From an uncultured Actinomycetes bacterium (GTDB lineage: Bacteria; Actinomycetota; Humimicrobiia; Humimicrobiales; Humimicrobiaceae), in contig CAWKAO010000003.1 of NCBI GenBank assembly GCA_963847665.1, forward strand, positions 638,309-702,308: a stretch of 64,000 bases of DNA, given 5' to 3'. The translations under genes were made by a program, and so were the position numbers. The notes beneath the pieces were generated by a model. It worked only from the letters and a program-made list of their open reading frames with translations, was not told the origin of the DNA and did no database searches. This document shows, piece after piece, positions 5,641 through 29,902 of the stretch; positions within the stretch are counted from its first letter, which is position 1, and each line of letters begins with the position of its first letter.

Positions 5641-6462
5641 ATGAATGATGAATTTATTATTGTTACGGAGAATGTCAGTAAAACTTACATAACCCAAAAA
5701 GAACCGGTACCTGCTATAAAAGATTTTTCGATGCAGATAAAAGAAGGGGACTTTGTAGCTATAGTGGGACCAAGTGGTTGTGGAAAAACAACCCTTCTTT
5801 GGGGTCTGACTGGCCTTCACCCCTTTACTTCTGGGAGAGCATTAATACTGGGAGAAGAAGTAGAAAAACCAAGAAAAGAAGTTGGGATAATCTTTCAGCA
5901 GTCTAATCTTTTACCGTGGAGAAATTTAATTGATAATATGTATTTTCCACTTGAAATAATGAGAGAAAACTTAAATGATTATAAAGAGCACGTTTCAGAG
6001 TTGATAGAAAGTGTTGGTTTGGGTGGTTTTGAAAAACGATACCCAAAAGAACTTTCTGGAGGCATGCAGCAGAGAGCGTCAATCGTAAGAGCATTATCAT
6101 ATGACCCAAAAATACTGCTGATGGACGAACCATTTGGGGCGCTTGATGCTTATACAAGAGATGAGATGGACACACTTATTTTAGGAATTTGGGAAAAGAC
6201 AAAAAAGACTATTGTCTTTGTGACACATAGAATAGAGGAAGCAGTTTACCTTGCAAATAAAGTATATGTTATGACTCCCCGGCCTGCAATAAATTCTGAA
6301 ACTTTCAATATTGATCTACCAAGGCCTCGTCCGGCTGGCATAACTATGGATAAGATATTTTTTGAGATTGTAGCAAAAATTAAGAAAAAAATTGTAGATG
6401 ATGTAGAGGCACAAAAAAAAGCTGGAAAATATGCAAGCCAGGCTTTCAGTACTGTAGCTTAG
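5641..6462 (+). CDS. ABC transporter ATP-binding protein (NitT/TauT family)
   Basis: Walker A GPSGCGKTT, signature LSGGMQQR, Walker B LLMDEPF. AAGGAG SD upstream. Confidence 0.9.
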   Translation: MNDEFIIVTENVSKTYITQKEPVPAIKDFSMQIKEGDFVAIVGPSGCGKTTLLWGLTGLHPFTSGRALILGEEVEKPRKEVGIIFQQSNLLPWRNLIDNMYFPLEIMRENLNDYKEHVSELIESVGLGGFEKRYPKELSGGMQQRASIVRALSYDPKILLMDEPFGALDAYTRDEMDTLILGIWEKTKKTIVFVTHRIEEAVYLANKVYVMTPRPAINSETFNIDLPRPRPAGITMDKIFFEIVAKIKKKIVDDVEAQKKAGKYASQAFSTVA

Positions 6463-18972: not shown

Positions 18973-20841
18973 TCAGACCTCTTCTTCAAGTTCCTCAGCT
19001 AGCTGCTGTCTGTAGTACAGTTTTTGATAAATACCGCATTTTTTCATAAGGTCATCATGTGAACCTATCTCATTTATTTTTCCCTCTTCCATAACTATTA
19101 TCCTGTCAGAATCTTTTATGGTCGAGATCCTGTGTGAGATTATAATGGTTGTGAGTTGCTCAGTCTTTTTACGGAGATCATTTAGTATAAGTTCTTCAGT
19201 GTTTGTATCGACATTTGAAAAAGAGTCATCAAGTATCAATATTTTTGGTTCCGTTATCAGTGCCCTTGCTATTGCCAGCCGTTGCTTCTGTCCTCCTGAG
19301 AGTGTTATCCCTCTTTCTCCAACGACAGTTTCATATCCTTTTGGAAAGTCCTTAACGTCCTCATCCAGATGGGCAATTCTTGAAGCTTCCATAATAAGCG
19401 CTTCCAGTCCATCATCAGAAAGGCTTGAAAGAAACTCTTCTTTACCAAAGATGATGTTTTCCCGTATTGTCTTTGAGAAGATAAAAGGATCCTGGGTCAC
19501 GTATCCGATTTTTTTGCGGATAAGATCAAGAGGAAGTTTTCTTATATCATGCCCATCTACCAGTATAACACCCTTCTGGGGGTCATAGAACCTGGGCAGA
19601 AGATTTACCACAGTTGATTTTCCTGAACCAGTAAAACCCACAATACCAAGTTGTGTACCTGCCTCTATCTCAAAACTTATATCTCCAAGGACCCAGTTTT
19701 TATTTTTATTGTCATTTCCAGAGATGCCTCTGGCTGACTTTTTTCCGGCATCATCTTTTAAAGAATTTCCTTTTCCAAGAGACTCAAAATCAGGATGTTT
19801 TGGGTATTTAAAAAATACTTTTTTAAATGAGATACTACCGATGATATCATGGACCTTTACAGGATTTTTGGGCTCATCAATATCAGGGGTGATGTCGAAG
19901 ACTTTGTTAAGCCTGCCCATTGATACCTCACCCCTCTGGATAAGGTTAATCACCCAGCCAAGTGATATAAGGGGCCAGGTTATTGCGATTATATATGCAC
20001 TGAACTGTACAAACTGCCCAAGAGTCAATGTCCCTGATATGACCTGTCTTCCCCCCAACAGCAACACTACAAGAGCGCCGATCCCACCTATAAGGATCAT
20101 CAACGGCCAGAAAATGCTTCTTACCCGAGCAAGTGCCATATTCTTATTGATATAATCCTGGTTTAATCCGGAAAATACCTCTATCTCATTATTTTCCTGG
20201 GTAAAGGATTTAACGACTTTAATTCCCGCTATGCTTTCCTGGGTCCTTGCAGAAAGTGAGGCATATTGCTCCTGTGATAATTTAAACCTGCTGTAAAGCA
20301 TCGAACTCAATCTTGCAACAATGACAGGGAGGACCGGGATTGCAATAAGGGCAAAAAGCGTGAGCCTTACATTTATGAAAAACATAACTGTAAGGGTCGA
20401 TAAAAATACAAAAATAGTATTAAAAAAATTCATAAGACCTGGCCCGAGGAAGTTTCTTACAGCATCCATATCATTTGTCATCAGGGCCATGATGCTTCCT
20501 GTTCTATTGGACTCAAAAAAAGAAGAGTCAAGCCGCTGCAGGTGGGCAAAAAAATCGGACCTTATGCTGTATTCGATCTTTCTTGATACACCTATGATAA
20601 GCCGGCGCATATAAAACCTGAACACACCTTCTAAAGCAGAGATGCCAATAAGGATCAGGCTATATTTTATTAGCTGTGGCTGGGAATCCGGATAGTTCTT
20701 TAAGCTGTCTATAACTATTTTTAAAAGCCATGGGATTGCTAATGCAGCGACATTTGTTGCAATGATATATATTATACTTCCTGCAATCGCAAGCCTGTGC
20801 TTTCTAAAATATTTTAAAAGAGTCCTCAGCTGTTTTATCAT
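18973..20841 (-). CDS. ABC exporter permease/ATPase, heterodimer subunit with degenerate catalytic site
   Basis: Walker A GFTGSGKST, canonical signature LSGGQKQR, Walker B ILILDD followed by S (catalytic Glu replaced by Asp). Hydrophilic insertion of about 35 aa before Walker A. Confidence 0.9.
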   Translation of the reverse strand: MIKQLRTLLKYFRKHRLAIAGSIIYIIATNVAALAIPWLLKIVIDSLKNYPDSQPQLIKYSLILIGISALEGVFRFYMRRLIIGVSRKIEYSIRSDFFAHLQRLDSSFFESNRTGSIMALMTNDMDAVRNFLGPGLMNFFNTIFVFLSTLTVMFFINVRLTLFALIAIPVLPVIVARLSSMLYSRFKLSQEQYASLSARTQESIAGIKVVKSFTQENNEIEVFSGLNQDYINKNMALARVRSIFWPLMILIGGIGALVVLLLGGRQVISGTLTLGQFVQFSAYIIAITWPLISLGWVINLIQRGEVSMGRLNKVFDITPDIDEPKNPVKVHDIIGSISFKKVFFKYPKHPDFESLGKGNSLKDDAGKKSARGISGNDNKNKNWVLGDISFEIEAGTQLGIVGFTGSGKSTVVNLLPRFYDPQKGVILVDGHDIRKLPLDLIRKKIGYVTQDPFIFSKTIRENIIFGKEEFLSSLSDDGLEALIMEASRIAHLDEDVKDFPKGYETVVGERGITLSGGQKQRLAIARALITEPKILILDDSFSNVDTNTEELILNDLRKKTEQLTTIIISHRISTIKDSDRIIVMEEGKINEIGSHDDLMKKCGIYQKLYYRQQLAEELEEEV

Positions 20842-21148
20842 ATATCTTCCATCTCAGGGATTACCGGATCTGGTATTTTGTTATTATAATGGATTTGGAT
20901 TATTTTGCATTTGTTTAATACAACCTAAACAAAACACCTATCTTTTTTCGTTTTAATCAATATAAGTAAGTTGTTTTTTATAAGGATAATAAAGGGCTAA
21001 AAATAAATTTGCATAAATTTATTTTATAACTACACTAGTAACGATTATTATTAACAGGTTAAAAGAAATACGGGTATAAATTATTTTTTGTATTCAGGAG
21101 CCAGTATTTTTTTTTGTAAAGATTTAGACATAGAACAGTGTAGTTTAA

Positions 21149-21724
21149 ATGGATAATATTTATAAATATTTAGTCAATTATAAAAGAAGTGGTGAAAAAA
21201 AATGGTTTGATAAGATCTATTATCATTTCTTACCCAAAATCTATAACTATTTTTATTTTAATACATTTGACACCCATATTTCAGAAGATCTTGCAAGTGA
21301 AGTTTTTTTTAAAATATATAAGAACATAAAAGACACAAAATTAAATAGCAGGACTTTAAATTCATGGATCTATAAAATAGCAAAAAATCATCTGATAGAT
21401 TACTTTAGGAAGAAAAAAATTTATACAGACAACATTTTATTGACTGACAATTATGATGATATTAATGATGACAAATTAATTGATACTGATTTTTTTATAA
21501 AAAATAGTATTTTATTAAGAAAAGAATTTAGTTTTGAAAACCAGAAACTTATAAAAGCTATGGACCGGCTGACTTTGCTTCAAAAGAATATAATAATATT
21601 AATATTTATTATGGACCTGGACTATAAGACGATTGCAGATATCCTGATGAAAAAGGAGTCTACGGTCAGGGGTATATTGTTTAGAGCATTAAATATATTA
21701 AAGAGTGAAATCGATTATGACTGA
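21149..21724 (+). CDS. ECF-type RNA polymerase sigma-70 family factor
   Basis: 191 aa. Region 2 (IYKIAKNHLIDYFRKKK) and region 4 HTH (DYKTIADILMKKESTVRGILFRALNILK). Very AT-rich gene. Confidence 0.75.
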   Translation: MDNIYKYLVNYKRSGEKKWFDKIYYHFLPKIYNYFYFNTFDTHISEDLASEVFFKIYKNIKDTKLNSRTLNSWIYKIAKNHLIDYFRKKKIYTDNILLTDNYDDINDDKLIDTDFFIKNSILLRKEFSFENQKLIKAMDRLTLLQKNIIILIFIMDLDYKTIADILMKKESTVRGILFRALNILKSEIDYD

Positions 21725-22595
21725 AAAAGAACTGACTGACAGACAAATAGAAAAGATCTTATATAACTGTATCAACCTAATGAGAAAAGGTTACGATCTT
21801 CAGTACTGTATGGACAAATTTAGTAAGTATAAAGATATTCTATCTGAATACTTTTTAATAATGAATAGTTTTAAGATGTTAGATAAAAAGGCTATAGATC
21901 ATGTAATGGAGAAAAGGATCTTAAATAGTATATATTCAGATGAAGTTTCCCCAAATGACCATGATGAACAGGTTGCAGTACAGATCCCAGATCAAAGAAG
22001 AAAGGTTTTTTTTCGGATATTAAAACCTGCAATAATATTTTTATTTGTATTTGCCTTACTTAATTTTTCATTTATTGGTTTTAGTTATGCATCCCAAGAC
22101 AGTATTCCAGGCGATACCTTATATTCAACAAAGAGGAATATAGAGCAATTGAAATTGGTAATTTATCCCAAATCTTCGAAAAGCATAATTCATTTTCAGA
22201 TTTTAAATAGTAGGATATATGAAGCCGAAAAATTATTTAATTCCAATAAAGCCCAAAAAACTGTTACAGATGTCCTCATCAGAGAAGCAGAAGAGGAGTT
22301 TGACCAATGCAAGAAATATGAGTATTTTGATGGTGCATCTGAAGAAGAATTTGAAGAAGCTATTCTGGATATAAAAGAAAGATCAGAAAAAGAATTCAAT
22401 GAAGAGGCAGAAGAAAAATATGAAAATAATGATAATATAAAAGAAGATTCGAGTAAATCAGAAAAAGATTCAAATGAGTCAGAAGACCAGGAAAGTATTG
22501 AAGAGGAATCAAATGATACTTTAGATGAGGATAATAGCCCGGAAAAAGCTGAAGAAAAAGAAGATGAACATTCTGAAGAATCCGATCATGATTAA
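21705..22595 (+). CDS. putative anti-sigma factor (single TM, DUF5667-like extracytoplasmic domain, poly-acidic tail)
   Basis: Likely start is ATG 21717, overlapping the sigma stop (ATGACTGA). One TM helix (ILKPAIIFLFVFALLNFSFIGF), then PGDTLYSTKRNIEQLK typical of DUF5667. The last 85 or so aa are E/D/S-rich. Confidence 0.5.
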   Translation: MKSIMTEKELTDRQIEKILYNCINLMRKGYDLQYCMDKFSKYKDILSEYFLIMNSFKMLDKKAIDHVMEKRILNSIYSDEVSPNDHDEQVAVQIPDQRRKVFFRILKPAIIFLFVFALLNFSFIGFSYASQDSIPGDTLYSTKRNIEQLKLVIYPKSSKSIIHFQILNSRIYEAEKLFNSNKAQKTVTDVLIREAEEEFDQCKKYEYFDGASEEEFEEAILDIKERSEKEFNEEAEEKYENNDNIKEDSSKSEKDSNESEDQESIEEESNDTLDEDNSPEKAEEKEDEHSEESDHD

Positions 22596-22795
22596 AAAGA
22601 TAAAATAATTTTTTTAAGAAGCTAAACAAAAACCGCACTCTCTTTCGTTTATATACATAATAGTAATATAATCGAAATAATGATTAACTTTATTTTTAAC
22701 TAAATAATTAATAATATAATTATTTTTTTATTTAAAATTATATTCATTATTATTTCAATAATTAATTTTCAGTTAATTTATTAAAGGAGAGAATA

Positions 22796-23857
22796 TTGAA
22801 AACAAAGATCCATTTTAAAAAGATATTGGTATCCTTTTTTGTGGTATTGGGCTTTATTTTTTATGGAGTCTATCAGAGGATAGATTCCAGCTTCCAAAAT
22901 TTGGCAGGAAATTCTCCAGGAAACTCAACAGTTGCTGAATCTATACTTGAACCAGAAAGTAATACTGCAAAAAAACAGCTGAAAGCTGAAGAAATTGAGA
23001 TAAGTACAGCTGGTGAAACTGCAAATGCGCCAAAGAGTAAATTTAAAGATGGACAATATACTGGAAGCATAGAAGATGCTTATTATGGACTGGTCCAGGT
23101 CAAAGGGATTATCCGGAACGGTAAGCTCACTGACGTCCAGTTCCTGAATTATCCAGACGAAAGGAGCTATTCAGTCGAGATAAACAAATTTGCTATGCCC
23201 ATATTGACATCTGAAGCAGTTGAAACACAGAGTGCCCAGGTTGATATCGTTTCTGGAGCCACTAATACAAGCAGAGCTTTTATTGCTTCTCTGTCAACTG
23301 CTCTTAACCTGGCAGCAGTAGATAAAGATATGAATCCAGTAATCCAGGTACAGGTGCCAAAGGTAGACGCAGTTTCCAGTGCCACAAATGTTGCAAGTAG
23401 CTCCACAGGAGTGATCTCAGCAAGTCTTAGCCAGAGTGTCTGGACTGATGCAGTTTCCGGTGCCACAAATGTTGCAAGTACTTCATTGGGTGCACTTTCA
23501 GTAAGCTTGGGTCAGATTTTTGGGACAGATGCAGTTACTGGAGCGACAAACGTCTTAGATACTTCTACGGTTTTAACATCATCAGATCAAAATCAGAATA
23601 GCCAGATAGATATAATTTCTGGAGCAACGAATATTGCAGATGCTTCTGTAAATCCAGCGTCAATAGTTCAGGAACAGACTTCACAGGTCGATGTGGTCTC
23701 AGGAGCTACTAATACAGGTAGCGGTTCAACTACAGTCACAAGTTCCGATCAGTCTGACAGCGAACACGATTCTGATGATGAACACGATTCTGATGATGAA
23801 CACGATTCTGATGATGAACACGATTCTGATGATGAACACGATTCTGATGATGATTAA
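22796..23857 (+). CDS. membrane-anchored FMN-binding protein with six ApbE flavinylation motifs and an (EHDSDD)x5 tail
   Basis: TTG start 5 nt after AAAGGAGAG. K-rich N-terminus plus one TM helix. One full FMN_bind-like domain (aa 84-170 approx) ends in DIVSGAT. It is followed by DAVSSAT, DAVSGAT, DAVTGAT, DIISGAT and DVVSGAT. Confidence 0.75.
   Translation: MKTKIHFKKILVSFFVVLGFIFYGVYQRIDSSFQNLAGNSPGNSTVAESILEPESNTAKKQLKAEEIEISTAGETANAPKSKFKDGQYTGSIEDAYYGLVQVKGIIRNGKLTDVQFLNYPDERSYSVEINKFAMPILTSEAVETQSAQVDIVSGATNTSRAFIASLSTALNLAAVDKDMNPVIQVQVPKVDAVSSATNVASSSTGVISASLSQSVWTDAVSGATNVASTSLGALSVSLGQIFGTDAVTGATNVLDTSTVLTSSDQNQNSQIDIISGATNIADASVNPASIVQEQTSQVDVVSGATNTGSGSTTVTSSDQSDSEHDSDDEHDSDDEHDSDDEHDSDDEHDSDDD
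23366..23770 (+). repeat. five tandem 81-nt (27-aa) coding repeats, each starting with D-x-[IV]-[ST]-[GS]-A-T-N
   Basis: The motif Asp codons sit at 23366, 23447, 23528, 23609 and 23690, exactly 81 nt apart. The first 34 nt or so of units 1 and 2 are nearly identical. Confidence 0.85.
23762..23851 (+). repeat. perfect 18-nt x5 tandem repeat GAACACGATTCTGATGAT encoding (EHDSDD)5
   Basis: Five identical copies read directly from the sequence, in frame, ending 6 nt before the stop codon. Confidence 0.95.
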
Positions 23858-23893
23858 TTAAAATTAATTCGGAGAACATTAATAAATATATCT

Positions 23894-24691
23894 TTGAGCT
23901 ATAGATTGACAATTACGCCTGTGAAACAAACAAGAGATCAAATGGGAATGACTATAACGGTAGAGATAGTAGATGGATTTGCTTCCCAAGCAGACATAAA
24001 CGATATCTATTCATATTTTCGTAGTGTCGAAAAGAGATTTAGCGTATTTAATACCAACAGTGAGATTTCTAGAATAAACAGGGGTGAAATTAAAAAGGAA
24101 GATTTTAGCAAGGATATGATCTCTGTCTTTGAACTTGCAGAAAAGACAAAAAACCAAACAGGCGGATATTTTGACATAATTACAAAGGACAAAAAATATA
24201 ATCCTTCCGGGATAGTCAAAGGTTGGGCTATTTATAATGCCTCAAAGATATTGCTGAGCCAGGGATATAAAAACTTCTATATAGATGCTGGCGGAGACAT
24301 ACAGGCTCATGGAAAAAATAAATATGGATTTGACTGGAAGATTGGGATAAAAAATCCCTTTTCTCAGACACAAATAGTGAAAGTGATCGGTCTTAAAAAT
24401 ATGGGTATAGCGACCTCCGGCACATATATCAGGGGCCAGCATATCTATGATCCCTTTAATAGAAGCAAAGTTTTAACAGAGATCATCAGCTTAAGCGTTA
24501 TAGGCCCGGATGTCCTCGAAGCAGACAGATTTGCGACAGCAGCTTTTGCAATGGGAAAACAGGGAATCGACTTTATTGAAAATGTTGAATTTCTGGAAGC
24601 ATATATGATAGATAAAGACGGATTTGAAGTGAAAACTTCTGGTTTTGAAAAATATTATATTTCTAAATCTGATCAGTTTAAAAATGTTTAG
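23894..24691 (+). CDS. apbE: FAD:protein FMN transferase (ApbE family), no signal peptide
   Basis: MGMTITVEI, PSGIVKGWA, IDAGGDI, IATSGTYIRGQHIYDP and EADRFATAAF match conserved ApbE blocks. The hydrophilic N-terminus starts (TTG) only 12 codons after the in-frame TAA of the upstream gene. Confidence 0.8.
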   Translation: MSYRLTITPVKQTRDQMGMTITVEIVDGFASQADINDIYSYFRSVEKRFSVFNTNSEISRINRGEIKKEDFSKDMISVFELAEKTKNQTGGYFDIITKDKKYNPSGIVKGWAIYNASKILLSQGYKNFYIDAGGDIQAHGKNKYGFDWKIGIKNPFSQTQIVKVIGLKNMGIATSGTYIRGQHIYDPFNRSKVLTEIISLSVIGPDVLEADRFATAAFAMGKQGIDFIENVEFLEAYMIDKDGFEVKTSGFEKYYISKSDQFKNV

Positions 24692-26210
24692 AAAGATAGA
24701 CAATATATTAAATAAAATAACTATGTACCAGACGGTACTATACTGCCTGTTGGTAATTCTTTTTTCAGCGTTTGTGTTGAGTTTTTTTGGACTTATGCCT
24801 TTTAAATCTTTTGATTTGATCTCATCTTCAGTATTTATTTTAGCTGTATGTATCCTTTCCAATGCTGTATTTGCATGGGCATTTGAAGCTCCGACTAATA
24901 TTGAATCCGTTTATATAACAGCTCTGATCCTGACTCTTATCATCAACCCTACGGATCCTATGAAAAACCTTATATTTCTATTCTGGATCTCAGTTTTAGC
25001 TATGGCTTCAAAATATATTTTTGCTACGGGAAAAAAACACCTATTCAATCCTGTCGCAATTTCGGTAGTACTAGTAAGTGTGGTTGCAGGCAAAGCTGCC
25101 AGTTGGTGGATAGCAGGCCCATATATGTTGCCTTTTGTATTTTTATTCGGCCTTCTTGTGGTGAGGAAAATAAAACGTTTTGACATGGTTGCTAGTTTTT
25201 TAATAACAGCACTTATTACAGTTACTGTTTTTAATTTTATACATAATCAGAATATTTTCTCAGGGTTGCAAAAAACATTTCTATATTCACCTCTTTTATT
25301 TTTTGCGTTTATAATGCTGACCGAACCGATGACTATACCTCCTTCTAAGATTATGCGGATACTATATGGCATGATAGTCGGTTTTTTATTTGCACCACAG
25401 GTACACATAGGTTCTGTTTATTTTACTCCCGAGATGGCACTGGTTCTGGGAAATATATTTTCCTATCTTATAAGTCCAGATAAAAAACTGATACTGACTC
25501 TCGATAGAATAGTAAAATTGACTCCAGATATATATGATTATGAATTTATATCTGACCAGAAAATCGAATTTGTACCTGGGCAATATATGGAATGGACTCT
25601 GGAACATCCTAGCCAGGATAGCAGGGGGATAAGACGATATTTCACAGTAGCTTCTTCCCCAACAGAGGAAAAAATACATCTTGGAGTAAAATTTTATAAT
25701 AACTCCAGCAGTTTTAAAAAAAACCTGTTAAAAATGAAAGAAAAAGAAACAATAGTGGCGTCTCAATTATCAGGCGATTTTACTCTTCCTAAAAATATAA
25801 ATAAAAAACTGGTCTTTATCGCTGGTGGTATTGGTATAACTCCATTCAGGAGCATGATAAAGTACATGTTAGACAATAATGAAAGAAGGCCTGTTGTCCT
25901 ATTTTATTCAAACTGGAAATATGATGATATTGCATATAAAGATATTTTTGATAAAGCAAATCAACGACTAGGAATCAAAGTAGTGTATTCAATAGTGGAC
26001 GATACGCCACTGGATACTAAAGAGGGTTGTTTTTATTGTGGTTTTCTAAAAAGTAAAAATATTATAGAAGAGGTCCCGGACTACAAAGAAAGGATTTTCT
26101 ATATTTCCGGTCCACCTTCAATGGTCACATCTTTCGTAAATACCCTTAGAAAGATCGGGGTCAAAAAGACACATATTAAAACAGATTATTTCCCGGGTTT
26201 TGCATCTTAA
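24684..26210 (+). CDS. RnfD/NqrB-like polytopic membrane domain fused to FNR-type FAD/NAD(P)H oxidoreductase domain
   Basis: Preferred start is ATG 24684 (overlaps the ApbE stop, ATGTTTAG); the ORF track start is 24645. HLFNPVA and MLTEPMT resemble RnfD/NqrB motifs. The C-terminal RRYFTVAS (RxY[ST] FAD motif) and FIAGGIGITPF (NAD(P)H motif) are FNR-like. Confidence 0.7.
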   Translation: MFRKIDNILNKITMYQTVLYCLLVILFSAFVLSFFGLMPFKSFDLISSSVFILAVCILSNAVFAWAFEAPTNIESVYITALILTLIINPTDPMKNLIFLFWISVLAMASKYIFATGKKHLFNPVAISVVLVSVVAGKAASWWIAGPYMLPFVFLFGLLVVRKIKRFDMVASFLITALITVTVFNFIHNQNIFSGLQKTFLYSPLLFFAFIMLTEPMTIPPSKIMRILYGMIVGFLFAPQVHIGSVYFTPEMALVLGNIFSYLISPDKKLILTLDRIVKLTPDIYDYEFISDQKIEFVPGQYMEWTLEHPSQDSRGIRRYFTVASSPTEEKIHLGVKFYNNSSSFKKNLLKMKEKETIVASQLSGDFTLPKNINKKLVFIAGGIGITPFRSMIKYMLDNNERRPVVLFYSNWKYDDIAYKDIFDKANQRLGIKVVYSIVDDTPLDTKEGCFYCGFLKSKNIIEEVPDYKERIFYISGPPSMVTSFVNTLRKIGVKKTHIKTDYFPGFAS

Positions 26211-26386
26211 ATCTTTTATACCTGTTTATATAGATCATCTATTCCACAGGCCAGGTTGCCTTTTTTTGAAAAAAGAGTATTATTCTCAAAGTTATTTTAC
26301 AGGTTTTTTATTCAAAACCACCAAAGCTAAAATCAGAAAACCTGTAAATTATTCCGGTTTAAAATTATTAGAAAGCTGCTAAAGCG

Positions 26387-26938
26387 ATGTTTGAATTTAA
26401 TACAGAAATATTGTTCTGGTCCGCTATAGTTTTTGTCGCGATGATGGCCCATGTCCTTACAGGCACTGTGAGGCTTATCATGATGGTAAAGGGAAGGAAA
26501 GCACTTGCTGTAATAGTAGGATTTTTTGAAGCTGCAATCGGTATTACCAATATCATACTTGTCATCTCGAATGCTGTAAGATCGGGAATAAATATTTTTA
26601 TAATCCTTTTTTATGCTATTGGATTTGCTGCGGGCCTGACTCTTGGGATGCTAATCTCCCAGAAGATCTCAAAAGATATTTTGAGTATAAATATAGTGAC
26701 AAAAAACCAGGATACTTCCCTGGCAGATCTTCTCCGGTCCAGGGGATTTGGCGTGACCTGTTATGAGGGCAGTGGAAGAGAAGGTAACCTGAAAGTCTTG
26801 AATGTCGTATGCCAGAAGACTAAACTACTCAGGTTAAAAAAGCTTGTCACATCTGTCGATGAAAAAGCCATGCTCACAATACACACCCTTGAGGGCTTGA
26901 GTGGCGGCTTTATCTTTGATATAAAAAACAGGATATGA
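26387..26938 (+). CDS. UPF0316/DUF2179 family membrane protein
   Basis: 183 aa with three N-terminal TM helices and a C-terminal soluble domain (RGFGVTCYEGSGREG...LEGLSGGF), as in the UPF0316 family. Confidence 0.65.
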   Translation: MFEFNTEILFWSAIVFVAMMAHVLTGTVRLIMMVKGRKALAVIVGFFEAAIGITNIILVISNAVRSGINIFIILFYAIGFAAGLTLGMLISQKISKDILSINIVTKNQDTSLADLLRSRGFGVTCYEGSGREGNLKVLNVVCQKTKLLRLKKLVTSVDEKAMLTIHTLEGLSGGFIFDIKNRI

Positions 26939-28422: not shown

Positions 28423-29091
28423 ATGGCAATTTTTGCAAGATTAGCCGATCTTCTGAAAGCAAACATCAATGACCTCATAGATAAGGCAGAAGACCCCGAA
28501 AAGATGGTCAAACAGATCATAATCGATATGGAGGAGCAACTACAGAAAGCTATCCAGGGTGTAGGATCAGTAATGGCTACTGAGCGCCAGGTAAAAAAAC
28601 AATTGGAGGAAGCTGAAAATGATTCAAAGTTATGGGAAGGCCGGGCAAGAGAGGCACTTAAATCTTCAAATGAAGAGATGGCAAAACAGGCAGTGGATAA
28701 TAAACTGAAAGCTGATGAGAAGATAAAACAATACCGGAAAATGCATGAGGAAATATCTGTCCAGTTAAACACTTTGAAGGGACATGTCTCGATTTTGAAG
28801 GATAAGCTTCTCGAAGCAAGAAGTCGTCAGTCCATGCTTATAGCCAGGGATAAAGTCGCAGATGCAAGAAAACAGGTATCGGACGCTGTCGGTGATCTTG
28901 ACAGTTCCGGCGCATTTGCAAAGATGGATAAGATGGAACGCAAAATAGCAGAAAAAGAAGCTCAGGCAGATGCAGTTTATGAGATATCTGGAATAGATGA
29001 AGAACAAAACGACCCATTTGCTGAGGCCGAAAGGGAAAAAGCAGCCGAAGATGAACTGGCACGTTTGAAAGACGAATTATCCAAAGAATAG
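28423..29091 (+). CDS. pspA: PspA/IM30 family protein
   Basis: MAIFARLADLLKANINDLIDKAEDPEKMVKQII is the hallmark PspA N-terminus. 222-aa coiled-coil protein. Confidence 0.9.
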   Translation: MAIFARLADLLKANINDLIDKAEDPEKMVKQIIIDMEEQLQKAIQGVGSVMATERQVKKQLEEAENDSKLWEGRAREALKSSNEEMAKQAVDNKLKADEKIKQYRKMHEEISVQLNTLKGHVSILKDKLLEARSRQSMLIARDKVADARKQVSDAVGDLDSSGAFAKMDKMERKIAEKEAQADAVYEISGIDEEQNDPFAEAEREKAAEDELARLKDELSKE

Positions 29092-29110
29092 AAAAAGGAA
29101 GGGGCGCGGA

Positions 29111-29902
29111 ATGATACAATATATTATTGGTGGAGTGATGGTCGCTGCTGGTGTTTTTGTAAGCCTCTTTATTCCATGGAAAATAAAAAACAGGATAATA
29201 GAGATCAAGTATTTAAAAACGACACCTATATCAGAGTTGCGGGGCATCTTAAATGACAGTTCTGCGGCCGGCTTGGGCAGTTACAGGCATTATGTCGAGA
29301 TAAATGGTTCAGCTGGTTCCGATACACCACAGAAAGCACCTTATTCACAACGGGTTGTTGCTTATTTCGATGCAAAGCTTTACCAGGTATTTGAAGAGAC
29401 AGAGACTTACAGGGACAGCAGTGGAAATACTCATACCCGTATGAAAAAAAGCGAGACACTTCTTTCAGAGCAGAAAAGTTCCGGCCTTGTCACGATCAAT
29501 GAACCACAATCTGGTGAAAAAGTATATTGTGATATATCGCAGAAAGGTCTTCGGCTTGAGACTTTAAAGACTCTGGATAAATTTGAACCTTCAGCTAATT
29601 TAAACCAGAATAGTTTTTTTGCTAATTTCAGTTTTAAGCCGATGGGTGCAAGGACTCTTGGGATGAGGATGGTAGAAAATACGATACCACTAGGACGTGC
29701 ACTTTATGCAATAGGCGAAGCCTGGTTAGAAGGCGAAAAGATAATTTTTGGCAAACCAACGGAAAGTAAAAATCCTTTCATTTTATCTGTCAGAAGCGAG
29801 TCTGAAATATTACAGTCAAATAAAAAAGGTTCTACTGTAGCACTGGTGCTTGGAATAATCCTTGCAGTAGCAGGTCTTGCAGTAATGATATTTGTGCGCT
29901 GA
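29111..29902 (+). CDS. membrane protein with N- and C-terminal TM anchors (GIDE-domain-like architecture)
   Basis: 263 aa. TM helices at both ends flank a soluble region of about 200 aa. Starts 19 nt after pspA. The family assignment is tentative. Confidence 0.35.
   Translation: MIQYIIGGVMVAAGVFVSLFIPWKIKNRIIEIKYLKTTPISELRGILNDSSAAGLGSYRHYVEINGSAGSDTPQKAPYSQRVVAYFDAKLYQVFEETETYRDSSGNTHTRMKKSETLLSEQKSSGLVTINEPQSGEKVYCDISQKGLRLETLKTLDKFEPSANLNQNSFFANFSFKPMGARTLGMRMVENTIPLGRALYAIGEAWLEGEKIIFGKPTESKNPFILSVRSESEILQSNKKGSTVALVLGIILAVAGLAVMIFVR

Follow-up and report, generated by a model that had tools for sequence, protein, structure and literature searches.

Background

NQR/RNF-like systems are defined as gene clusters in which a protein that fuses the domains PF03116 and PF00175 is encoded near FMN_bind or ApbE genes (Meheust 2021, PMC8238504), and a one-way flow of electrons from NAD(P)H to extracytosolic flavin mononucleotide (FMN) has been proposed for them (PMC8238504). 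The published systems are found in Actinobacteria and the candidate phyla radiation, and the class is among the commonest predicted flavin-based electron exporters in Patescibacteria, some Actinomycetota and Chloroflexota. Their membrane domain lacks the flavinylation site of NqrB/RnfD (Huang 2024, PMC11334425), and in a complex modelled with AlphaFold-multimer for Ktedonobacter racemifer, the partner subunit brings its FMN near the vacant flavin site (PMC11334425). Some of the clusters are linked to VIT1 iron transporters (PMC8238504), and entries in part of the supplement of the same survey place genes for extracytoplasmic function (ECF) sigma factors, without comment, near some flavinylation clusters of other phyla (Meheust 2021, PMC8238504). 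The present study concerns a five-gene module of an uncultured Actinomycetes bacterium of the Humimicrobiaceae, located in a 64-kilobase (kb) stretch of contig CAWKAO010000003.1 (hereafter the window, whose positions serve for all module coordinates). In it, genes for an ECF sigma factor and a putative anti-sigma factor precede those for a protein with multiple predicted flavinylation sites (hereafter the FMN protein), an ApbE-type transferase and a membrane reductase.

Several ApbE sites on one extracytosolic chain are known from multi-flavinylated proteins such as SaFMN3 and CbFMN4 (Tong et al. 2023, PMC10339131) from the 'beads on a string' proteins (Meheust 2021; Huang 2024) and from P0242 and P0243, found in the present searches; longer-distance electron transfer is the role proposed for such proteins, as it is here. 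Every site of these proteins lies in a complete FMN_bind domain (P0242, P0243), whereas five of the six sites of the window protein lie in 27-residue units without a pocket, so that their flavins would be exposed to solvent. ApbE modifies bare motifs as short as 7 residues (Flavin-tag; PMC12052999); the Flavin-tag, like the repeats described below, places an ApbE site outside a flavin-binding fold (Tong et al. 2021, via PMC12052999), but it is an engineered single tag, and the window protein would be a natural tandem array. Na+-NQR and Rnf share with the module homologous NqrB/RnfD, NqrC/RnfG and NqrF-type FAD/NAD modules and maturation by ApbE; unlike them, the window reductase has neither a 2Fe-2S domain nor the covalent-FMN segment of NqrB, and its electron path is presumably one-way and not semicircular. 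Flavin-based extracellular electron transfer in Listeria resembles the predicted system in that an ApbE-family enzyme flavinylates a surface FMN protein and electrons move outward in a Gram-positive-type envelope. Electrons in Listeria reportedly come from the quinone pool via Ndh2 and EetA/B, PplA is said to be a lipoprotein with two full domains and FmnB to be exported, and we know of no ECF control of that system.

SigW-RsiW and RpoE-RseA are pairs in which a sigma factor with domains 2 and 4 is followed by an overlapping gene for a membrane anti-sigma factor, under an autoregulated promoter with AAC and CGT blocks. The pair in the window is alike in having a sigma factor with domains 2 and 4 only, an overlapping gene for a putative membrane anti-sigma factor and an AAC/CGT promoter motif upstream. 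It differs in its sensor part, which would be a DUF5667 domain plus an acidic tail, with no recognisable anti-sigma domain, and in that no targets other than the sigma operon itself and the redox module were seen.

Judged by domain content, the last three genes of the module are a published NQR/RNF-like system and not a new combination. They share with that class the two-subunit core, an ApbE gene in the cluster, a membrane domain without a covalent-FMN site and the proposed one-way flow, and differ from it by five extra motif-only sites, an acidic tail and a dedicated ECF sigma/anti-sigma pair with matching promoters. Neither the extra sites and tail nor sigma control is mentioned in PMC8238504 and PMC11334425 (the main text of the former has 0 occurrences of 'sigma'), and the searchable literature yielded no relevant link of flavinylation or ApbE to ECF sigma or anti-sigma factors. 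ECF control with its promoter motif, the motif-only array and the acidic tail appear undescribed in that literature. We consider it probable that the locus is an autoregulated, sigma-gated pair of operons whose products move electrons from NAD(P)H onto covalently bound FMNs arranged as a tethered string.

Results and discussion

The NQR/RNF-like genes

The last three genes were identified by profile hidden Markov model (HMM) searches as follows, with FAD standing for flavin adenine dinucleotide.

22796-23857, + strand: membrane-anchored extracytosolic flavoprotein (predicted), 353 amino acids (aa), TTG start with a strong ribosome-binding site, AAAGGAGAG
23894-24691, + strand: compact, signal-less ApbE-type FAD:protein FMN transferase, ApbE (PF02424) 140 bits
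24684-25499, + strand: N-terminal polytopic NqrB/RnfD-like membrane domain of the reductase, NQR2_RnfD_RnfE (PF03116) 32.2 bits, cut-off 27.7
25500-26210, + strand: C-terminal cytosolic FNR/NqrF-like FAD/NAD(P)H domain of the reductase, motifs RRYFTV and GGIGITPF, NAD_binding_1 (PF00175)

The domain fusion that defines the published class is present above its cut-offs, with FMN_bind (37.4 bits) and ApbE immediately upstream. An earlier reading of the DNA made without database searches (hereafter the sequence-only reading) had not recognised the combination as a characterised system and had listed the RnfD-FNR fusion and the signal-less ApbE among its unusual parts. These judgements are revised here, as the three genes belong to the published class, the fusion is its defining protein with more than 7,800 database relatives, and an ApbE of this type is found in all 11 orthologous clusters. 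The electron path which that reading had proposed, from NAD(P)H through FAD and the RnfD-like domain to extracytosolic FMN, is the same as the published proposal (PMC8238504, PMC11334425).

Both halves of the reductase had been assigned correctly, at 32.2 bits for the membrane domain and 50.1 bits (cut-off 22) for NAD_binding_1; FAD_binding_6 scored 17.8 bits, below its cut-off. The best solved-structure matches of the C-terminal domain were the reductase of toluene-4-monooxygenase and the FAD/NAD domains of NqrF. A profile of 17 orthologous membrane domains aligns to residues 134-207 and 273-393 of Vibrio cholerae NqrB, with 18 orthologue residues opposite the 66 NqrB residues between the aligned stretches (208-272), a segment that we take to include the flavinylated Thr236; the reductase sequence contains no [ST]GA[TS] motif. 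With Thr236 so placed, the skip in the alignment leaves the membrane domain without the NqrB/RnfD flavinylation site, which is the trait described by Huang 2024. Relatives of the reductase are 62-68% identical in Humimicrobiaceae and 50-57% in Patescibacteria and Anaerolineae. In neighbour-joining trees (computed without bootstraps), sigma-linked clusters are not set apart from sigma-less ones by their reductases or by their ApbEs, so no specialised reductase paralogue is claimed. No gene for an NqrA/D/E/F or RnfA/B/C/E subunit was found among the five module genes and ten flanking genes, which do not make up a bona fide Na+-NQR or Rnf complex. The contig of the window apparently also encodes a sigma-less set, with a reductase (P0014, 64% identical) and a single-motif FMN_bind protein of 237 aa (P0168), and the genome seems to hold a standard NQR/RNF-like copy besides the sigma-gated one.

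The ApbE of the window aligns with the V. cholerae enzyme from the mature N-terminus of the latter (residue 15 of 6nxi), and its true start is likely to be the GTG at 23921. It keeps DAGGD, ATSG, GQHIYDP and a His where the PDB entries 6nxi (H) and 6nxj (G) differ, and with its PF02424 score these Mg/FAD-site motifs and the catalytic His assign it to the ApbE fold. Hydropathy analysis detected no hydrophobic segment in it, so it is not of the exported lipoprotein type. ApbEs of such clusters are 241-258 aa long, start 6-8 residues before MGT and are signal-less in 11/11 orthologous clusters, Patescibacteria included; those of the window, L002-L012 and L017-L020 lack about 55 residues of V. cholerae ApbE (positions 97-153).

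The FMN protein and its repeats

The FMN protein consists of an N-terminal signal-anchor, a low-complexity linker, an FMN_bind domain of the NqrC/RnfG type, five motif-only repeats and an acidic tail.

23087-23308, + strand: FMN_bind domain (aa 98-171), 37.4 bits, motif DIVSGAT with Thr156
23360-23764, + strand: five repeats of 27 aa (81 nucleotides, nt), V/T-D-x-V/I-S/T-G/S-A-T-N, predicted flavinylation at Thr197, 224, 251, 278 and 305
23762-23853, + strand: acidic His/Asp tail (DSDDEH)x5, a perfect 18-nt tandem repeat

Its single hydrophobic segment is N-terminal, follows a K/H-rich N-terminus and looks like an uncleaved anchor by hydropathy; the predicted topology is N-in/C-out. The claim that the protein carries multiple flavinylation motifs was borne out: six D-x-x-[ST]-[GS]-A-T motifs start at residues 150, 191, 218, 245, 272 and 299, and the last five are exactly 27 residues apart. 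The FMN_bind domain shares 65-72% identity with the single-domain partner proteins encoded in sigma-less clusters. Those proteins, 164-242 aa long, combine an anchor at the N-terminus and a low-complexity linker with one FMN_bind domain, which ends in ...VSGATxTSxAFxxSLxxAL; each repeat of the window protein resembles a degenerate copy of the final 27 residues of that domain (motif plus C-terminal helix). Cryptic full FMN_bind domains in the repeats are ruled out by the 27-residue length and by Pfam, which detects no domain in the repeats; it assigns one FMN_bind stretch each to the window protein, P0121 and P0123, and two to P0128. Since Pfam counts one domain, the FMN protein is not a multi-flavinylated protein as that class has been defined in print, by two or more FMN_bind domains; in the functional sense, six ApbE recognition motifs D-x-x-[st]-g-A-[TS] in one protein, it would be included.

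The repeat units are 37-67% identical in DNA and are missed by Tandem Repeats Finder, and judged by this divergence they are old; residues of the motif are 56-89% identical between units and other residues 11-50%. Among 70 non-redundant homologue units, information content is 3.2-4.3 bits per column in the motif versus 1.1-2.0 in the linkers. This contrast is the pattern expected from selection on an ApbE recognition site. The same architecture was found in about 20 database proteins (P0121-P0141, 287-413 aa; named sources are Humimicrobiaceae or Actinomycetota metagenome-assembled genomes, MAGs), which have one FMN_bind domain, then 2-5 motif-only units, mostly 25-30 residues apart, then an acidic tail. 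An exhaustive phmmer search of the repeat region against 1.84 billion representatives returned only two family members and two canonical multi-domain proteins, so motif-only arrays are rare as far as phmmer can see. The motif-only repeats, which the sequence-only reading had singled out as unusual, do appear undescribed in the literature searched.

The tail of the window protein is built on an 18-nt unit, GAACACGATTCTGATGAT, present in frame in 5.1 copies with 100% matches (Tandem Repeats Finder); as the repeat is perfect it is taken to be recent, and it is probably prone to changes of copy number by slippage, so that tail length would vary between strains. Homologue tails are 23-91 aa long, mostly ending -EDD, and conserve acidity and not His. 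The tail had also been called unusual, which holds in so far as an acidic tail appears undescribed; its His residues are specific to the window, and the acidity is what the subfamily conserves.

Some further observations concern these proteins. Nearly all of P0121-P0141, including the two-domain P0128 and P0131, end in -EDD, -DD or -ED (EYEDD, DEKDD, EYQDD) at any tail length, which looks like a conserved C-terminal signal or binding motif. The motif of the FMN_bind domain is DIVAGAT, DIFAGAT or DVIAGAT, with Ala at the Ser/Thr position, in P0121, P0122, P0124-P0127, P0129, P0132 and P0134-P0138, and the tail motifs of these orthologues keep [DN]-I/V-V-S-G-A-T. In the AlphaFold2 model each repeat (window 23351-23720) forms a beta-hairpin that turns at the S-G of its motif, at a predicted local distance difference test (pLDDT) score of 54-76, which may be an artefact of modelling repeats. 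The best weak Foldseek matches were the FMN domains of SaFMN3 and CbFMN4; the others, also non-significant, were beta-solenoid-like (ice-binding proteins, FapC).

The sigma factor, the putative anti-sigma factor and their conserved neighbourhood

The two genes upstream of the FMN protein are the following.

21149-21724, + strand: ECF (group IV) sigma-70 factor, 191 aa (profile HMMs)
21717 (or GTG 21705)-22595, + strand: putative single-pass anti-sigma factor (position, topology, DUF5667-like domain)

The sigma factor contains domains 2 and 4 only (Sigma70_r2 40.5 bits, Sigma70_r4_2 32.8 bits; Sigma70_r2 and Sigma70_r4 above their cut-offs) and scores 75.6 bits against TIGR02937 (sigma70-ECF; cut-off 42.9), which places it in the ECF (group IV) sigma factors; it has no equivalog-level match to a named ECF group. 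Orthologues were found in L013-L016 and L021-L023 with E-values of 1e-68 to 1e-75, and an overlapping downstream gene for a single-pass membrane protein accompanies the sigma gene in all orthologous loci. From its position and topology, the second gene product would be an anti-sigma factor. Hydropathy and alignment divide it into a cytosolic N-terminal domain of about 95 aa, a transmembrane helix (aa 97-115), an extracytosolic, helical DUF5667-like domain and an acidic C-terminal tail, and the orthologues share these four parts; an alignment of seven sequences has 44 invariant columns, with variable acidic tails. DUF5667 scores 24.8 bits in the window protein, below the cut-off of 27, and 31-35 bits in the orthologues, through which the earlier assignment of this domain was upheld together with that of the sigma factor. 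The remaining domain calls of the sequence-only reading were likewise supported once the profile searches that it had suggested were run, FAD_binding_6 and DUF5667 being below cut-off in the window. No paper mentioning DUF5667 was found in the searchable literature. The tail of the putative anti-sigma factor (22400-22595) is long, variable and rich in Asp, Glu and Ser, ends ...EDEHSEESDHD in the window and resembles the tail of the FMN protein.

Conservation of gene order was examined in related loci. The 12 loci first fetched (L001-L012), from Patescibacteria and Humimicrobiaceae MAGs, all have single-motif FMN proteins; the order FMN_bind, ApbE, reductase is present in 10 of them and the sigma/anti-sigma pair in none (0/12). 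With the reductase as query, the genome collection yielded sigma-less clusters only. Loci L013-L024 were reached with the multi-motif FMN protein or the anti-sigma factor as query. In these, the anti-sigma gene lies directly upstream of the gene for a multi-motif FMN protein in L013-L021, L023 and L024 (L022 ends before the FMN gene), and the sigma gene precedes it on every contig long enough to include that position. L018 repeats all five genes in order, as do L017 and L019/L020 except that the sigma gene there is cut off by the end of the contig. A search for the gene order had been suggested with the sequence-only reading, and the arrangement does recur, on Humimicrobiia-like metagenome contigs. 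Downstream partners vary, being ApbE and reductase in the window, L017, L018 and L019/L020 and the reductase alone in L013; the conserved unit is therefore the trio of sigma factor, anti-sigma factor and multi-motif FMN protein and not the five genes. In L014 (58-933, - strand), L015 (2879-3754, - strand) and L016 (879-1754, - strand), a gene for a NapH-like Fer4_5 membrane iron-sulfur protein lies divergent from the sigma side, as does one for a 245-aa protein without an assigned family; no ECF motif was found on that side, and the two proteins may be an alternative electron input in these loci.

Promoter motifs

Comparison of the regions upstream of the sigma genes with those upstream of the FMN-protein genes revealed a two-block element common to both, cc-AAACAAAA-N14-CGTTT(T/A)(A/T)(A/T), which occurs in the window together with a further candidate promoter.

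20928-20953, + strand: ECF-type promoter motif AACAAAA-N14-CGTTT, P(sig), 196 nt upstream of the sigma ATG, proposed autoregulatory
21051-21080, + strand: tentative housekeeping-type promoter TTAACA-N18-TATAAA, between the ECF motif and the sigma start
22625-22650, + strand: ECF-type promoter motif AACAAAA-N14-CGTTT, P(fmn), 146 nt upstream of the FMN-protein start, proposed sigma-dependent

A scan of the 64 kb for AACAWAA-N13/14-CGTTT gave exactly two sites, both on the + strand, where 0.07 were expected, and 0/100 shuffles reached two; allowing one mismatch adds a single site, within an open reading frame (ORF) and with a broken CGT. In all, 12 motif sites in 8 loci were aligned, at the same two kinds of position. 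They lie 196-227 nt 5' of the sigma gene in the window, L013, L014, L015, L022 and L023, and 80-146 nt 5' of the FMN-protein gene in the window, L013, L014/L021, L015/L016, L019/L020 (a CGTAT variant in L019) and L024; in the orthologous loci by themselves the distances are 215-227 nt and 80-119 nt. The motif was not found in the sigma-less loci. An AAC block and a CGT block at such spacing are the usual form of an ECF promoter, and a copy 5' of the sigma gene is the usual mark of autoregulation. An autoregulatory promoter with AAC (-35) and CGT (-10) blocks is accordingly predicted in the window and five orthologous leaders. The dedicated ECF gating proposed by the sequence-only reading gains comparative support from the conserved order of the trio and from the shared promoter motif.

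In orthologous sigma leaders, the place equivalent to that of the housekeeping-type promoter conserves TTGnnA-N16/17-TATAtA; the copy in the window is weaker and was not listed in a scan for the consensus, and sigma-70-like hexamers are at background level in this AT-rich DNA (29 found versus 26 expected). The arrangement suggests a basal promoter plus an inducible one ahead of the sigma gene. An FMN riboswitch or other known RNA in the long leaders was considered and rejected, as no Rfam match of any weight was obtained over 20700-26500, and the conserved sigma leader is better explained by tandem promoters. A near-palindromic sequence, TAGTATATACTA, overlaps the -10 element of the housekeeping-type promoter in orthologous sigma leaders (L013 about 6060-6080, L014 about 1455-1475, L015 and L023). 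No clear copy of it is seen in the window, and a role as operator for a further regulator is possible.

Proposed mechanism and alternative explanations

In the mechanism that we favour, the anti-sigma factor would hold the sigma factor at the membrane until an extracytosolic signal, perceived by its DUF5667 domain and acidic tail, sets it free. The free sigma factor would fire the two AACAAAA-N14-CGTTT promoters, of which the one at its own gene would provide positive feedback on top of the basal housekeeping-type promoter, and the one at the FMN-protein gene would be read through into the ApbE and reductase genes. NAD(P)H would reduce FAD in the cytosolic FNR-like domain, and electrons would cross the membrane via the NqrB/RnfD-like domain, probably with a non-covalent flavin, to reach the covalent FMN of the docked NqrC/RnfG-like FMN_bind domain. 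From there they would spread to five more FMNs, attached by ApbE to the 27-residue repeats as a tethered, exposed string ending in a cation-binding acidic tail. The acceptor would most likely be extracellular and kept close to the tail, for example a soluble oxidant or a metal such as Fe(III). We favour a cation, Fe(III) or a different one, because of the Asp/Glu/His tail and the NQR/RNF-like clusters linked to VIT1 (PMC8238504). Comparative evidence underlies the proposed release of the sigma factor and activation of two promoters, and homology together with the published model underlies FAD reduction and transmembrane transfer. The analysis itself shows the gene structure, the domains, the conserved gene order, the common promoter motif and the preferential conservation of the flavinylation motif within the repeats; sigma dependence, flavinylation of the repeats, the relay to their five FMNs, the way in which electrons flow, the acceptor and the signal are what we infer beyond that.

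Several observations weigh against this proposal. The module is known here from its genes alone, and the NQR/RNF-like class is itself purely bioinformatic. Profile HMM scans detected no known anti-sigma domain in the putative anti-sigma factor, and a signal-less ApbE leaves the flavinylation of an N-in/C-out substrate topologically unexplained; the chain might be flavinylated while unfolded and before its export, an export route might have escaped recognition, or the substrate might face the cytosol. The AlphaFold2 model of the FMN protein (m60106d826416) is of low confidence (mean pLDDT 58), and Foldseek found no match to it in the PDB at E <= 0.001. L013 lacks ApbE, L014-L016 lack adjacent ApbE and reductase genes, and the second promoter motif is missing in L017, L018 and L023, where the gaps between the anti-sigma and FMN-protein genes are short (66-160 nt) and compatible with read-through from the sigma promoter. 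The motif pattern was derived from the same loci in which it was counted, which is no independent test, so that its weight lies in its conserved positions and its absence elsewhere. Among the ten flanking genes scanned, none hints at an electron acceptor.

One competing account takes the repeats to be unflavinylated, as a Ser/Thr/Gly-rich spacer or wall-spanning stalk that arose by duplication of the C-terminus of the FMN_bind domain, leaving one FMN and an ordinary NQR/RNF-like function. Pfam sees one FMN_bind domain, 27 residues are too few for a flavin pocket of about 80-120 residues, the linkers are of low complexity and the repeats are modelled with a confidence of only 54-76. A near-invariant V-[DN]-[IV]-V-S-G-A-T-N amid drifting surroundings is, however, not expected of a spacer, ApbE accepts bare motifs (PMC12052999), and the N-terminal linker of the same proteins is already a spacer and is free of the motif; we hold this account to be unlikely. 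A cytosol-facing system, in which ApbE would flavinylate its substrate in the cytoplasm and the flavin string would lie on the inner face of the membrane in an intracellular redox role, would agree with the lack of a signal or anchor on ApbE in all 11 orthologous clusters and with documented cytosolic ApbEs acting on cytosolic substrates (PMC12052999). It is made improbable by the Lys/His-rich N-terminus before the sole hydrophobic helix, which predicts N-in/C-out, by the homology of the FMN domain to the periplasmic NqrC/RnfG subunits and by the published model, which puts the FMN subunit outside (PMC11334425); long Ser/Thr/Pro-rich linkers and acidic tails are, in our view, also typical of wall-exposed regions.

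That the sigma and anti-sigma genes are mere neighbours, with the FMN protein, ApbE and reductase on a housekeeping promoter of their own, seems very improbable. Their adjacency is kept in all related loci with sequence past the anti-sigma gene, despite changing downstream partners, and the two-block motif precedes each of the two units, also in orthologues, with no other copy in the 64 kb; these observations outweigh the 200-nt AT-rich gap between the two gene groups, the frequency of sigma-70-like hexamers (29 versus 26 expected) and the lack of a sigma factor in most NQR/RNF-like clusters, all of which would suit separate expression. A more elaborate possibility, speculative and rather doubtful, is that six FMNs about 27 residues apart on a flexible or hairpin-stacked stalk, flavinylated in the cytoplasm before export, would form a leash of bare flavin tags with a metal-binding acidic tip, and that the acidic tail of the anti-sigma factor would sense the very cation or mineral which the flavin string reduces.

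If the sigma-gated export of electrons to a tethered FMN string is correct, the signal that induces so dedicated a switch, with its defined promoter motif, would reveal the purpose of the system. A natural protein with ApbE sites outside a flavin-binding fold would allow a test of electron relay by exposed, tethered flavins, and motif-only ApbE sites are relevant to flavin-tagging technology. The combination of a cytosolic-type ApbE with an exported substrate sharpens the question of where and when flavinylation takes place, and surveys based on counts of FMN_bind domains find too few multi-flavin proteins, provided that the repeats are flavinylated.

Organisation and genomic context of the locus

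The five closely packed ORFs on the + strand fill 21149-26210, and inspection of the ORFs and junctions confirmed the tight coupling and the overlaps reported by the sequence-only reading. The stop of the sigma gene overlaps the start of the anti-sigma gene at 21717-21724 (ATGACTGA, also written gattATGACTGA), and the stop of the ApbE gene overlaps the reductase ATG (24684) by 8 nt at 24684-24691 (ATGTTTAG). From the FMN protein to ApbE the gap is 36-63 nt, followed by the 8-nt overlap with the reductase, and the 200-nt AT-rich gap separates these three genes from the sigma/anti-sigma genes. One TAA and 12 codons lie between the FMN-protein gene and the ApbE ORF in the same frame, as had been noted correctly. 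The shared frame is without meaning and is taken to be a coincidence, because in L012 and L003 the two orthologous genes overlap or differ in frame, and ApbE orthologues start at the place of GTG 23921; a read-through product or fusion of the two proteins is ruled out on the same grounds. The 4 terminator-like hairpins found within the module correspond to chance (2.7 expected), and a hairpin with a T-run at about 26245-26270, considered as a terminator after the reductase, folds no better than shuffled sequences (z = -0.78).

The genes flanking the module in the window encode the following products.

Flanking genes: divergent ABC (ATP-binding cassette) exporter pair, DUF5698/DUF2179 protein, acetate/butyrate-kinase family protein, PspA, GIDE-like protein, M20 peptidase

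As these genes are unrelated to the module and unlike those beside the orthologous loci, the module is taken to extend from about 20.93 to 26.21 kb. The PspA/IM30 gene and that for the GIDE-family membrane protein, an envelope-stress pair at 28423-29902 on the same strand, lie 2 kb downstream; the pair has no ECF motif and is not kept beside the module at other loci.

The G+C content is 22-29% over 20.75-22.75 kb against 35-44% in the flanks, in agreement with the AT-rich stretch of 20.9-22.8 kb pointed out earlier. A foreign island was considered as its origin and ruled out, since the sigma and anti-sigma genes of orthologous loci, compared with the genes beside them, are equally rich in A+T; the low G+C content is thus a property of the sigma and anti-sigma genes and not of a recent insertion.

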